Assembly (NCBI GenBank): GCA_963842085.1
Contig: CAWJET010000001.1
Coordinates: 1,024,001-1,088,000, forward strand
DNA: 64,000 bases
Origin: an uncultured delta proteobacterium
GTDB taxonomy: Bacteria > Desulfobacterota > Binatia > Binatales > Binataceae
Reading direction: 5' to 3'
The translations under genes and the position numbers were made by a program. Below the pieces are notes generated by a model, which made no database searches, was not told the origin of the DNA, and saw nothing but the letters and a program-made list of their open reading frames with translations. Positions 38,479-42,779 of this stretch are shown piece after piece (within the stretch, counting starts at the first letter, position 1; every line of letters starts with the position of its first letter).

Positions 38479-39269
38479 TCGTCGACACGCACTGTCATCT
38501 TGCGGATGCCAAGTTCCGCGACGACGTCGAAGCGGTGATCGCGCGCGCGTCAGCCGCCGGCGTGGCGCAGATCATCTCGGTTGGCGCGATCGGACCGATC
38601 GAAAACGATCGATTGACGGTCGAAATCGCGGAGCGTCATCAAAATGTCTTCGCCGCCGTCGGCGTGCATCCGCATGAGGCCAAGGACTGCACCTCCGAGC
38701 GCATCGCACAGTTGCGTGACCTGGCCGCGTCGAAAAAAGTGGTGGCGATCGGCGAGAGCGGGCTCGATTTTCATTACATGCACTCGCCGCGCGAGGCGCA
38801 GGAAGCGTCCCTGCGCGCGCATCTTGCACTCGCCGCCGAACTCGGTCTGCCAATCGTGATTCATTGCCGCGACGCGGAGCGCCGGTTCGTAGAGATCGTG
38901 CGCGAGACCGGGATTCCGCCGCGCGGCGGCGTGATTCATTGCTTCACCGGCGACGCCAACGCGGCGCGCGAGTTCCTCGCGCTCGGATTCTGCATCTCGT
39001 TCTCGGGCATCATCACGTTCAAAAATTCCGCGCCGATTCGCGAGGCCGCGTCGATCGTTCCCGACGACCGCGTGATGGTCGAGACGGACGCACCCTATCT
39101 CGCGCCCGAGCCGTACCGCGGCAAGCGCAATGAGCCCGCCTACCTCACGCGCACGCTCGAAATGCTCGCGAACCTTCGCCGCATCGACGCAGCTGCACTC
39201 GGTGCGCGCGTGATCGCAAACGCCGCCCACGTATTCAGGCTGCCGCCACCATCGAAAACGCTATCCTAG
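38475..39269 (+). CDS. TatD family hydrolase
   Basis: DTHCH, GVHPH, IGE.GLD, IHCR, ETDAPYLAP. Confidence 0.95.
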   Translation: MIVDTHCHLADAKFRDDVEAVIARASAAGVAQIISVGAIGPIENDRLTVEIAERHQNVFAAVGVHPHEAKDCTSERIAQLRDLAASKKVVAIGESGLDFHYMHSPREAQEASLRAHLALAAELGLPIVIHCRDAERRFVEIVRETGIPPRGGVIHCFTGDANAAREFLALGFCISFSGIITFKNSAPIREAASIVPDDRVMVETDAPYLAPEPYRGKRNEPAYLTRTLEMLANLRRIDAAALGARVIANAAHVFRLPPPSKTLS

Positions 39270-39950
39270 CGGATTGCCGCCGAAGATCATCGGATGCAGC
39301 GCGATTATCGCGGCCGTCAGCACGACGCCCGCGCCGATCGCCGCCCACGGCATGTCACCGCTGGTCCATCGAACGCGCCCGCTGACTAGCGCCGCGAAGG
39401 GCACAATCGAGGTCTTCGCGACGAACTCGCGGTAGCGCCCGCCAAGCTCGCGAAGCTTGCGCCCGTCCTGATGCATCCCGCCGATGATTCCGAGCGCGGG
39501 AAACATCCCGAAGAAAATTACGTCGCCGGCCCATCCGTTCATCAGAATGTGCGCAATTCCGAACAGGCTGAATGCGACAAATGCCGGGTGCCGCGTGACC
39601 TTCTGGATGCCGTGGGGCTCAAGCACTCCCTTCGCGCTGGCTACGCCCGGGTTCGGATTGATGAAGCTCGCGACAAACAGGATGAGCGCCGCCAGCATCA
39701 GCAACCACGCCAGCCATCGGATCGGCGCGACCGCACGCAGGTACCAGAGCAAGGGGCCCGCGTGCTTGTTGCGCGCGAACTCGTAGATCAGCGGTCCGAG
39801 CGTCGCGGCCGCGATTAGCGAATAGATGCCGCGATAGGGCTGCTCGCCGACCGCACCTATCAAACGAGGACGCACCGCCGACGACGATACAATCAGGTGG
39901 CTTAACAGGAACGAGACTGCCCACAGCGCGATCCAGACTGTCGCATCCAT
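39261..39950 (-). CDS. NnrU family membrane protein
   Basis: YRGIYSL, TRHP, AH...NG, H.D.RK, TSIVPF. Confidence 0.85.
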   Translation of the reverse strand: MDATVWIALWAVSFLLSHLIVSSSAVRPRLIGAVGEQPYRGIYSLIAAATLGPLIYEFARNKHAGPLLWYLRAVAPIRWLAWLLMLAALILFVASFINPNPGVASAKGVLEPHGIQKVTRHPAFVAFSLFGIAHILMNGWAGDVIFFGMFPALGIIGGMHQDGRKLRELGGRYREFVAKTSIVPFAALVSGRVRWTSGDMPWAAIGAGVVLTAAIIALHPMIFGGNPLG

Positions 39951-40077
39951 AGTGACCTCCCGCGAGCACGATGATCGCACGATCGCGGCTCGCGTCAACG
40001 CAGTGAATCGCTTGCAGACCGGCGCTCGATTCACGAATCGGCTCGTGCGGGGTTGTAGTCATCGGGAGCATCAAACA

Positions 40078-40260
40078 ATGATACCGACTATCCAGGTTGA
40101 CGAGGCGCGGTTCACAGAAGTCGCGGAGCGCAGTGCAGAGCGTGAGATCGGCGACGGCGTCCGGCTCGCGCAGGCGTGCATGGTCGAGGAAGTCCTCGGC
40201 GCGGTTTTCGGATCGATCACGCTGTGGTACTTGGTGACTTCGATAGCAGCACTGGCCTGA
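40078..40260 (+). CDS. 60-aa protein with C-terminal TM helix
   Basis: GGGAG upstream; stop 8 nt before the ECF sigma start. Confidence 0.45.
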   Translation: MIPTIQVDEARFTEVAERSAEREIGDGVRLAQACMVEEVLGAVFGSITLWYLVTSIAALA

Positions 40261-40268
40261 CCTGCGCG

Positions 40269-40784
40269 ATGCCGACGTTCAATCTCAAGCTGCCGCCGCC
40301 GTTCGAAGAGGCGGTGAAGAGCATGGAACGCGAGATCATGCGCTTTCTCGTGCGCTCGACCGGCGATCGCGACGACGCGATGGACCTGTTCCAGGAGACC
40401 TGGCTGCGTGCCTATCGCGCCTACCCGACGCTGCGCTCGGAAGACGGACTGCGGCCGTGGATTTTTCGAATCGCGTCGAACCTGTGCCGCAATCGAGCGC
40501 GCGACCGGATGCGCCGCGGGCGCGTGATCTCCCACGAGAGCGCCGACGGCGATTCGCTGGAGCATCGCGCGCCGAATCACCTCACCGGCGGCCCCGAAGG
40601 CGCGCTGCATTTGAAGAGATCGATCGCGCGGCTGCCGGGCAGGCAGGGGCAGGCGTTGATGATGCGCAAGTTCGCGGGACTCGAATATACCGAGATCGGC
40701 ACGGCGCTGAATTGCTCGGCCGAGAGCGCGCGCGCAAGCGTGTATCAGGCAGTGAAAAAACTGAAACTCAGGCTCGAAGAGTGA
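40269..40784 (+). CDS. ECF sigma factor
   Basis: DAMDLFQETWLRA, WIFRIA.N.C.N..R (region 2); LP..Q...GLEY.EI...L (region 4). Confidence 0.92.
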   Translation: MPTFNLKLPPPFEEAVKSMEREIMRFLVRSTGDRDDAMDLFQETWLRAYRAYPTLRSEDGLRPWIFRIASNLCRNRARDRMRRGRVISHESADGDSLEHRAPNHLTGGPEGALHLKRSIARLPGRQGQALMMRKFAGLEYTEIGTALNCSAESARASVYQAVKKLKLRLEE

Positions 40785-41593
40785 TCAAGATGAAAACCAA
40801 TCGCATGGCGACGCGAGTGAAAGAGAGTCCACCGCTCGACGACCGGGTGCTCGACGCGATGATCGTGCAGACGCGCCCGCGCATCGAGCGCGCGATGAAG
40901 ATCCTGCGGCGGCCGCAGGCGCGGGTCGGCGTGATTCCGTCACCGCTCGGACGCCTGCTGGTGGCGGAGAGCGACCGCGGCCTCGCGGCGATTCACTTTC
41001 TTTTCATAAGTGGCGGCGAGCGCACGCTCGAGATGCTGCGCAAGAAGTTCGACCTGATCGAGAATGAAGCGAGCGCCCGCCGGATCGAGGCGGAAATCGA
41101 CCGCGTGTTCGAGGGCGGCTTCGACGCGACGGTGCAGCCGGTGGATTTGAGCCTGGTCGAAAGCGATTTCCAGCGCCGCGCGTACACCTTGCTGCGAAAG
41201 GTCCCGGCAGGTGCGGTGATCACCTATCATGGGCTGGCGGCGACGGTCGGCCAGCCCAACGCCCAGCGCGCAATCGGCACTACGATGGCGACGAATCCGA
41301 TCCCGATTTTCGTGCCGTGTCATCGCGTGATTCGATCCGACGGAACGATCGGCAATTACGGCGGCGGCGTGGACAACAAGCTCAAGCTGCTGCGCGCGGA
41401 GGGATTCGAAGTCGGGCGCGACCTGCGACTGCCGTCGCGCGCGGTGATGGGCCATCGACAGACCCGAATCTTCTGCCGGCCGGGCTGCTCGGCGGCGCGG
41501 CGCGCGGATCCAACGAAGGCGCTGATCTTCGCGGATGCCACGTGCGCGGAACACGCCGGCCTGAGGGCGTGCAAGTTGTGCAAGCCGGCGTGA
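40781..41593 (+). CDS. O6-methylguanine-DNA methyltransferase with C-terminal Ada Zn-binding domain (start 40781 GTG or 40790 ATG)
   Basis: SPLG.L, FQRR.Y, RAIG, NPIPI.VPCHRV, then TRIFCRPGC...GLRACKLC. Confidence 0.9.
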   Translation: MIKMKTNRMATRVKESPPLDDRVLDAMIVQTRPRIERAMKILRRPQARVGVIPSPLGRLLVAESDRGLAAIHFLFISGGERTLEMLRKKFDLIENEASARRIEAEIDRVFEGGFDATVQPVDLSLVESDFQRRAYTLLRKVPAGAVITYHGLAATVGQPNAQRAIGTTMATNPIPIFVPCHRVIRSDGTIGNYGGGVDNKLKLLRAEGFEVGRDLRLPSRAVMGHRQTRIFCRPGCSAARRADPTKALIFADATCAEHAGLRACKLCKPA

Positions 41594-41615: not shown

Positions 41616-41652
41616 AAAAGAGCGGCGCCGGATGCGACGCCGCTCTTCTTTT
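41616..41652. terminator. Bidirectional intrinsic terminator
   Basis: AAAAGAGCGGCG...CGCCGCTCTTCTTTT between convergent genes. Confidence 0.75.
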
Positions 41653-41672: not shown

Positions 41673-42020
41673 TTACTCGGTTTCCGACTGCGACTTGAGC
41701 TGCTGGATCTGCTCGCGTTGATTCTCGATTTCCTGCTGTTGCTGCTGCACTTGCGCCTGGGTCTGTGCGTTGGCGTTTTCCTGATTCTGCATCGAATTGC
41801 CGACTACGTAGCCGGTGCCACCGCCCAGCACACCGCCGATCGCTGCGCCCGCGAGCGGATGACCTACCGCGGCGCCCACGATTGCCCCTGTACCAGCACC
41901 CAGCGCCGTGCCACCGAGGGTGCCCTCTTCACGAGTCGAAAGCGGCTGCCCCGTGCATCCAGCAAGAACGAGTGCCCCCGCCAGCGCCAAACTCACTATT
42001 GCCGTTAAACCTTTGCGCAT
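41673..42020 (-). CDS. Glycine-zipper lipoprotein, paralog 3
   Basis: LAG-C, PLSTREEGT, GxxxG repeats, Gln-rich coil ending ETE. Confidence 0.85.
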   Translation of the reverse strand: MRKGLTAIVSLALAGALVLAGCTGQPLSTREEGTLGGTALGAGTGAIVGAAVGHPLAGAAIGGVLGGGTGYVVGNSMQNQENANAQTQAQVQQQQQEIENQREQIQQLKSQSETE

Positions 42021-42061
42021 AATGAGAACCTCCATCTTCCAATGAGTATACGTCAGCGCAG

Positions 42062-42409
42062 CTATTCGGTTTCCTCCTGCCCCTTCAATTGCTGAATCTG
42101 CTGACGCTGTTCCTCCAATTGTTGTTGCTGCTGCTGGATCTGCGCCTGGGTCTGCTGATTGGCATTGTCCTGGTTCTGCATCGCATTGCCGACCGCGAAC
42201 CCGCCCACTCCTCCTATAGCCGCGCCGATAGCAGCGCCCGCACCTGGCGCGCCGACGGCAGCGCCTATGATCGCGCCGGTGGCCGCGCCAATCGCGGTAC
42301 CGCCGATAGTGCCCTTCTCACGCGTGGAAAGCGGGTCCCCGGAGCATCCTGCAATCAGGAAGAGCGCGGCGAGCGCGAATACACCCGTGACGATAGCGCG
42401 TTTGCGCAT
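42062..42409 (-). CDS. Glycine-zipper lipoprotein, paralog 2
   Basis: IAG-C, PLSTREKGT, GAIIGAAVGAPGAGAAIG, Gln-rich coil ending ETE. Confidence 0.85.
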   Translation of the reverse strand: MRKRAIVTGVFALAALFLIAGCSGDPLSTREKGTIGGTAIGAATGAIIGAAVGAPGAGAAIGAAIGGVGGFAVGNAMQNQDNANQQTQAQIQQQQQQLEEQRQQIQQLKGQEETE

Positions 42410-42425
42410 GATCCTTCTTCGCCTG

Positions 42426-42779
42426 CTATTCGGTTTCCTGCTGATTCTTCAACTGTTGAATCTGTTGTTGCTGATTTTCGATCTGCCTTTGCTGGGAACT
42501 GATCTGCGCCTGAGTCTGTGCGTTGGCGTTTTCCTGATTCTGCATCTCGTTGCCAACCGCGAATCCTCCCAACGCGCCGATACCACCGCCGATTGCCGCG
42601 CCCGCGCCCGGTGCGCCGACCGCGGCGCCTATGATCGCGCCGGTGGCGGCCCCGATTCCGGTTCCGATGAACGTGCCCTTCTCACGTGTCGAGAGCGGCT
42701 CTCCCGAGCATCCCACCACCGCCACGAGAGCAATCGCCACGAGCAGACCCTTGATTATCGATGCAGCATTCGTCCGCAC
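42426..42779 (-). CDS. Glycine-zipper lipoprotein, paralog 1
   Basis: AGGAGG RBS, VVG-C, PLSTREKGT, same zipper and Gln-rich coil ending ETE. Confidence 0.85.
   Translation of the reverse strand: MRTNAASIIKGLLVAIALVAVVGCSGEPLSTREKGTFIGTGIGAATGAIIGAAVGAPGAGAAIGGGIGALGGFAVGNEMQNQENANAQTQAQISSQQRQIENQQQQIQQLKNQQETE

Follow-up and report, generated by a model that had tools for sequence, protein, structure and literature searches.

An ECF sigma factor gene paired with an alkyltransferase gene in Binataceae: evidence on a possible damage-sensing anti-sigma role of the repair enzyme

Introduction

In a Binataceae genome, the gene of an extracytoplasmic function (ECF) sigma factor is directly followed by a gene encoding an O6-alkylguanine alkyltransferase (Ogt). 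This raises the question of what a suicide repair enzyme does at the position usually taken by an anti-sigma factor. An earlier reading of the DNA (the original prediction) proposed that self-methylation could release or activate the sigma factor, which would make the repair enzyme its own damage-sensing anti-sigma factor. The locus was analyzed in a stretch of 64,000 nucleotides (the window; contig CAWJET010000001.1 of assembly GCA_963842085.1) and compared with related loci.

The pairing of ECF and ogt genes with Ada zinc domains nearby is already catalogued, as groups ECF122 and ECF203. In their supplement, Casas-Pastor et al. (2021; PMC7826278) list ECF122 as 100% Actinobacteria, with a methyltransferase at position +1, no anti-sigma factor, and the promoter CTCAC/CGTCTAC. 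ECF203 is listed there as confined to Actinobacteria, with a methyltransferase at +1, 1.22 Ada_Zn_binding domains per ECF in its context, and TetR and MFS neighbors, and TetR is proposed as its regulator. A review counts ECF122 among the ECF groups of uncharacterized regulation (PMC8999054). In the literature searched, which covered few subscription journals, neither an experimental study of the ECF-ogt wiring nor an anti-sigma reading of it was found.

Organization of the locus

The features of the operon and its surroundings are compiled in Table 1. The inverted repeat behind the operon was not listed by the terminator scan, whose limit is exceeded by the 10-nt loop of the repeat.

Table 1. 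Features of the ECF-ogt locus (positions in the window)
Feature	Position	Strand	Remarks
NnrU-family membrane protein gene, divergent from the operon	39261-39950	-	sigma-70-like site at 39998-39971
Predicted operon promoter	40030..40057	+	-35 TTCAC at 40030-40034, 14-nt spacer, -10 GGGGTTGTA at 40049-40057
60-aa ORF, accessory	40078..40260	+	one C-terminal hydrophobic stretch; in 29/41 close loci
ECF sigma factor gene	40269..40784	+	171 aa; Pfam r2 and r4_2; ECF122-related lineage by trees
Partner gene	40790..41593	+	267 aa: N-terminal helix, Ogt, Ada zinc domain
Partner helix, residues 16-39	40835..40906	+	amphipathic; predicted contact to sigma region 2.1-2.2
O6-alkylguanine alkyltransferase domain	40916..41410	+	PF02870 and PF01035; fold matches AGT structures
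Acceptor Cys177 codon	41318-41320	+	invariant in 100/100 aligned partners
Ada-type zinc domain	41417..41587	+	PF02805; alignment to N-Ada structures
Zinc-domain Cys229, 233, 261, 264	codons 41474, 41486, 41570, 41579	+	
Possible terminator: GC-rich inverted repeat, then T-rich run	41620..41652	+	read from the sequence
Three tandem glycine-zipper lipoprotein-like paralogs, Gln-rich tails	41673-42779	-	after the operon

The original prediction had started the partner gene at a GTGA overlap with the sigma stop codon. The overlap is present in the window (40781-40784, with the GTG in frame). The overlap codon was compared in 37 loci with the window spacing; the 4 remaining sigma-bearing loci have other spacings. 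It is GTA in 20, GTG in 15, and ATG in 2 of these relatives, and an ATG is positioned 5 bases past the sigma stop in 36 of the 37. Because the GTG at 40781 is not conserved, the start was assigned to the ATG at 40790, from which the protein has the length of most close homologs; the named ones belong to Ca. Binatus and Binataceae. The genome itself falls with Ca. Binatus. The overlap thus exists, but as an argument it is weak for this copy, and translational coupling through GTGA was rejected as a conserved feature.

In the deduced partner protein, about 43 N-terminal residues are followed by an Ogt part with the PCHR motif (PF01035, E 1.7e-29) and a C-terminal Ada_Zn_binding domain (PF02805, E 2e-11), the four Cys of which align with C38, C42, C69, and C72 of E. 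coli Ada. The AlphaFold2 model (pLDDT 88) has a helix at residues 18-38 ahead of the first Ogt strand, and its fold matches solved alkyltransferases (E 4e-11) and N-Ada. Residues Y146, R160, C177, and E204, equivalent to the PCHR active site and the Tyr and Arg-finger residues, were found in 100 of 100 aligned rows. The protein therefore has the sequence features and the two-subdomain fold of an O6-alkylguanine alkyltransferase, together with the four-Cys methyl-acceptor zinc domain of an Ada regulator. An AraC-type helix-turn-helix (HTH) is not joined to this domain; the protein ends 3 residues past the last Cys, and the search for HTH families gave no match in it. The helical segment, the intact methyltransferase, the C-terminal zinc domain with all four Cys, and the lack of the AraC HTH had been predicted in this form, as had the small ORF ahead of the sigma gene, and all were recovered. 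The four zinc Cys, R238, and R259 are retained in 38 of 38 Binataceae rows; over the whole alignment the zinc domain occurs in 58 of 100 pairs.

A further zinc regulator of the Ada type was not detected in the genome, which is 100% complete. The other PF02805 match (G000:C1:2762707-2763819, L112:532-1644) was discarded as a second Ada regulator: it is the tail of a 370-aa protein, nuclease-like by sequence reading, whose degenerate Ada-zinc-like C terminus has only two Cys.

The 60-aa ORF is one of a small family and has no Pfam or NCBIfam match. Three paralogs occur in this genome (e.g., G000:C1:3116285-3116654 and C1:2102750-2102887), none with the promoter. In genome G349, a paralog at another locus (L191:125-298) has a strong copy of the promoter, with a score of 29.3. 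In several lineages, the same promoter is immediately followed by an unrelated small hydrophobic ORF of 47 to 61 aa, in several cases with an Ala-rich tail (L126 and L129, ahead of the sigma gene; L206:108-284; L209:2087-2269; L190:174-314). A role of the 60-aa product as anti-sigma factor or sensor is disfavored, since the ORF is missing from 12 of 41 close loci and is elsewhere replaced by an unrelated small ORF. Regarding the flanking genes, a glycine-zipper homolog is found near the operon in 38 of 42 close loci, and the NnrU gene is adjacent in 32 of 42 close loci and in 0 of 37 more distant loci of the class.

Conservation of the ECF-ogt pairing

The search for related loci yielded 138 matching stretches, of which the best 80 comprise 42 close and 38 distant loci. 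The sigma gene is directly upstream in 41 of the 42 close loci, and the remaining one begins at a contig edge; a related sigma gene is upstream in 27 of the 38 distant loci. The zinc motif was detected in 40 of 42 close and 0 of 38 distant loci. When 151 genomes of the class were searched with a sigma profile, 71 of them yielded a total of 80 matches, and the best 70 of the 80 were examined. An ogt gene is directly downstream of 52 of the 54 sigma genes above a clear score gap, the two others ending at a contig edge, and downstream of 0 of the next 16, weaker ECFs. With a wider profile, ogt follows the sigma gene in 13 of 15 examined loci in a sample of Actinomycetes, in 13 of 13 additional loci from a sample apparently of Actinomycetota, and in 11 of 12 examined loci in a sample of Chloroflexota; three loci whose genomes are flagged as unpublished had been removed prior to the count. 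Related genomes are not independent, so these counts describe the pairing and are not tests. The synteny survey that the original prediction had called for thus revealed pairing far beyond chance, and the ECF-ogt feature is real and widespread. A second ogt gene of this genome is not paired with a sigma gene; therefore, the +1 position is specific to the paired form. Two apparent sigma-Ogt fusions (P0072 and L050) were set aside as evidence, since both depart from the sigma frame partway along and resemble frameshift artifacts.

Relationship of the sigma factor

The sigma protein contains Sigma70_r2 and Sigma70_r4_2, lacks region 3, and matches TIGR02937 over the cutoff, as expected of an ECF sigma factor. 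Its placement was read from two quick trees. In these trees, the ogt-linked sigma factors form one side of a branch with an SH-aLRT support of 90 or 96, with exceptions: L090 and L347, which have Ogt-zinc partners, fall outside, and L346, which has no such partner, falls inside on a long branch. In the tree with the support of 96, which was made with no AU test and no named ECF122 reference protein, the Binatia sigma factor is on the same side of this branch as the actinobacterial ogt-linked sigma factors, in a separate subclade. The Binataceae sigma factors (support 99) cluster with those whose partners are of the zinc-anti-sigma type (83 and 85); the actinobacterial sigma factors are separate from them. 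By this sequence placement, the sigma factor of the window is ECF122-related. Since the Ogt-Ada-zinc partners at L090 (1492-2211) and L347 stand behind ECF sigma factors that are not part of the main clade, sigma factors may have been exchanged or the pairing may have arisen a second time.

Evidence on a possible anti-sigma role of the partner

In the partner of the window, HxxxCxxC, a three-helix bundle, and a match to an anti-sigma domain family are absent from the sequence, the Pfam search, and the model, and the N-terminal segment has no sequence match in the PDB. Relatives of the partner differ in this respect. Among 52 partners of the class, 19 combine the zinc anti-sigma motif HxxxCxxC, at the N terminus, with Ogt and the zinc tail, 17 have the short helix, Ogt, and the tail (the Binataceae type), and 16 have neither HxxxCxxC nor the tail. 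In the best 150 profile matches, a regular expression detected HxxxCxxC with the C-terminal zinc pattern in 15 and the pattern alone in 39. Pfam zf-HC2 is over the cutoff in L083 and is not reported for L084.

The Binataceae helix occupies the position of helix 4 in the relatives with the zinc motif. In anti-sigma domains (ASDs), helix 4 binds region 2.2 of the sigma factor and blocks the beta-prime coiled coil (PMC4598750). In 33 distinct segments of the Binataceae helix, seven positions are hydrophobic at a frequency of 91-100%. As to a descent from ASD helix 4, the sequence comparisons gave mixed signals: the comparison with the anti-sigma profile gave a probability of 3% and an alignment to helix 1, though above all 30 shuffles, and the register expected for helix 4 was the best one in only 6 of 20 genome partners and in 2 of 17 representatives when one residue of tolerance was allowed.

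Two further forms were observed among the partners. A lineage of partners (L154, L156, L157, L159, L160, L162, L164, L167, L168, and L171) has retained helices 1-3 of the anti-sigma domain in a zinc-free version, with a profile match of 55% (E 1e-4), and helix 4 is seemingly missing; in this it complements the Binataceae form. In one genus-level group with 12 partners (L138-L149), the zinc anti-sigma region mostly has no in-frame ATG, GTG, or TTG past the sigma stop, and the start may lie further inside the sigma gene or at another codon.

The structure of the complex was predicted from the sigma factor and partner residues 5-212, the zinc domain being left out, with a 100-row alignment per chain. 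The prediction passed with an ipSAE of 0.69, compared to 0.01 for the best of three controls. Among 157 solved complexes, 116 reach the passing mark, as do 2 of 215 mismatched pairs; with the alignments used here, these counts apply only approximately. At least 67% of the contacts are common to the runs, and the partner pLDDT is at least 86. The best predicted contacts connect partner residues L21, M24, I25, T28, and I32 with sigma residues M24, V28, M38, F41, Q42, and W45, which belong to regions 2.1-2.2, the polymerase-binding face. Further contacts are predicted from Ogt residues 46-91, so that helix 16-39 and the N-terminal Ogt subdomain together would bind a sigma surface at residues 20-53. 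No sigma contact is named for the Cys177 subdomain in this model; therefore, coupling between Cys177 and the sigma factor must be indirect. Solved ECF sigma structures are sequence relatives of the window sigma factor, and the score may partly reflect memory, because ECF/anti-sigma complexes have already been solved. As a model, the prediction supports binding between the sigma factor and its partner, as the proposed interaction demanded. The anti-sigma proposal as a whole gained from the predicted complex, from the relatives with the zinc motif, and from the promoter common to repair genes, all of which is support of a computational kind.

Promoter and candidate regulon

Analysis of the upstream regions revealed the motif YTCAC-14-GGGGTT(G/A)TA in 40 of 41 close loci. 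The promoter of the window is the best site of the genome, with a score of 29.4. Judged from its sequence, it is likely to be read by the ECF sigma factor itself, because of the position of the motif and its likeness to the promoter predicted for ECF122. At loci without the 60-aa ORF, the sigma ATG is positioned 8-10 bases past the motif at 13 of 13 such sites, which would fit leaderless transcripts and supports the assignment of the -10 element. In the window, transcripts are predicted to start near 40066-40068.

The exact motif occurs at 71 sites in 48 of 61 genomes of the family, compared to 10 sites for the reversed pattern. From the 71, 39 sites were retrieved, mostly from genomes with several: 13 precede sigma genes, 4 repair genes, and 14 other genes, whereas 2 fall at contig ends and 6 are unclear. 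The repair genes are ogt (twice), an AlkB-type oxygenase gene, and a PF09859 oxygenase gene. The 14 other sites precede genes for SRPBCC proteins (3), DUF1329 proteins (3), thioesterases (2), small membrane ORFs (4), an MFS protein (1), and an HTH protein (1). The SRPBCC (Polyketide_cyc2; L212, L213, L226), DUF1329 (L215, L220, L223), and thioesterase (L205, L218) cases come from different genomes; therefore, the regulon may extend past DNA repair.

A promoter matrix was trained on 54 sigma-operon sites, without that of the window, and applied to the best 30 second-ogt loci and the best 30 of 48 PF09859 matches. Sites with a score of at least 10 were found before the second ogt in 16 of the best 30 loci (14 of 28 without the discovery loci; controls, 0 of 60) and before PF09859 genes in 8 of the best 30 loci (7 of 29 without the discovery locus; controls, 0 of 60). 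In this genome, 7 of 5711 mechanically called ORFs of at least 200 aa have a site of at least 10, and the top two are the sigma gene and the second ogt. At a limit of 100 aa, 6 of 13260 ORFs reach a score of 14. Among all 79 genome positions scoring at least 10, the second-ogt site ranks only ninth. No site of at least 10 was detected in this genome before the PF09859 gene, alkB, or the five HhH-GPD genes, and alkB and the glycosylase genes were accordingly dropped as targets here. In the family, alkB occurs in only 3 of 61 genomes; one of the three has the site, and that one is a discovery locus.

Discussion

We consider it probable that the alkyltransferase is the anti-sigma factor of the paired sigma factor and that self-methylation, probably at Cys177, frees the latter. 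The N-terminal helix of the partner would bind the sigma factor and, by analogy with known anti-sigma factors, cover region 2.2, so that binding to RNA polymerase would be blocked. Self-methylation would then loosen or destroy the partner and release the sigma factor, which would drive the transcription of its own operon and, likely, of further genes for alkylation repair until fresh, unmethylated enzyme recaptured it and shut off the loop. Phosphotriester repair would be contributed by the zinc domain, which may also provide a second input. The common sensing site is more likely Cys177, because this residue is kept in every aligned pair and the zinc domain in 58 of 100; judging from the alignment, the zinc domain is probably not the core switch. 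Alkylation is reported to destabilize human and archaeal alkyltransferases through disturbed intersubdomain contact (PMC4605297). The N-terminal subdomain takes part in the predicted interface, and a possible route from methylation to sigma release is thereby offered.

A related explanation keeps the partner as anti-sigma factor and seeks the trigger in methylation of the Ada zinc site (Cys229), by which the protein would be drawn onto DNA, or in simple titration by damaged DNA. It agrees with the full retention of the zinc Cys, R238, and R259 in Binataceae and with E. coli Ada, where methylation of Cys38 is described as the activating event (PMC10957082). However, 42 of 100 pairs keep the sigma factor and Cys177 without a zinc domain, which therefore cannot be a family-wide switch, and we regard this trigger as a minor possibility. 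It is rather unlikely that the partner is merely a co-transcribed repair enzyme and a target of a sigma factor controlled elsewhere, with a structural or vestigial helix. The supplement cited above classifies ECF122 and ECF203 as groups without anti-sigma factors (PMC7826278), this copy matches no anti-sigma domain family, and the mixed profile and register results for the helix fit this reading as well; the passing complex prediction, the conserved hydrophobic positions of the helix, and the second ogt without a sigma gene argue against it.

The partner might also inhibit the sigma factor in response to a signal unrelated to alkylation, such as stress proteolysis or the small membrane protein, with a wider regulon. 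The motif before SRPBCC, DUF1329, thioesterase, and small membrane genes would suit such a signal, as would the unrelated small membrane ORFs directly behind the promoter in different lineages. Against this stand the invariance of Cys177, the close loci without the 60-aa ORF, and the finding that, of the additional targets tested, genes for alkylation repair are the most consistent, which together make it improbable. That the methylated partner is an activator, binding the sigma factor and aiding promoter engagement as Ada or Cada2 would, appears very improbable: both of these proteins are described as activated, not destroyed, by methylation (PMC10957082), but the interface as predicted lies over the polymerase-binding face, an HTH is lacking in the partner, and its relatives carry the zinc anti-sigma motif.

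If the alkyltransferase is indeed the anti-sigma factor, its single turnover would let it count damage stoichiometrically and pass the result to a sigma switch. Such an adaptive response would need no DNA-binding activator, and the missing regulation of ECF122 would be supplied. A likely role of PF09859 oxygenases in alkylation repair is also pointed to. New in this analysis are a complex prediction with controls, made for a copy that lacks the zinc motif, and the promoter with its candidate repair regulon. On balance, we lean towards a third bacterial adaptive-response architecture beside Ada and Cada2, distributed over Binatia, Actinomycetota, and Chloroflexota. In it, the suicide alkyltransferase would itself be the anti-sigma factor, in this lineage by means of one helix and the enzyme surface, and self-methylation would free an ECF122-type sigma factor to act on its own gene, the second ogt, the PF09859 oxygenase gene, and sometimes alkB.

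Comparison with known systems

The locus shares with ECF122 the O6-methylguanine methyltransferase at +1 and a -35 element of the TTCAC/CTCAC type. It differs in its Binatia host, the -10 element of the GGTT(G/A)TA type, the C-terminal Ada zinc domain, and the separate subclade; in the actinomycete loci retrieved with the profile, CTCAC-17-CGTCTAC was found exactly in 4 of 15. The methyltransferase at +1 and Ada_Zn_binding in the context are common to ECF203 as well, for which the supplement (PMC7826278) gives the domain in the context and does not state a zinc-domain fusion. Unlike ECF203, the window has no adjacent TetR (judged from the ORF list) or MFS gene, the neighbors being NnrU, TatD, and glycine-zipper proteins.

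Both methyl-acceptor modules of E. coli Ada, with their Cys, are present in the partner, and autoregulation and alkylation-repair targets are predicted here too. In the partner, however, the domain order is reversed and the AraC HTH is lacking, and the output would be the release of an ECF sigma factor instead of an activated DNA-binding protein. Cada2 of Caulobacter is described as activated by methylation of its PCHR Cys, with a 2OG-Fe(II) dioxygenase gene as its most induced target (PMC10957082), and a PF09859 match was obtained in Caulobacter in a control search. The two systems share the PCHR Cys as the likely sensing site and a regulon, a candidate one here, that includes additional methyltransferases and a 2OG-Fe(II) dioxygenase, whereas Cada2 is an HTH-type DNA-binding activator that contacts RNA polymerase and has no sigma partner. 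With the class I ASD proteins RseA, ChrR, and RsrA (PMC4598750), the partner shares the gene position at +1 and a helix predicted to lie on region 2.2 as ASD helix 4 does. It departs from them in that this copy has neither the three-helix bundle nor HxxxCxxC, the N-terminal Ogt subdomain completes the predicted interface, and the sensor module would be a suicide enzyme.
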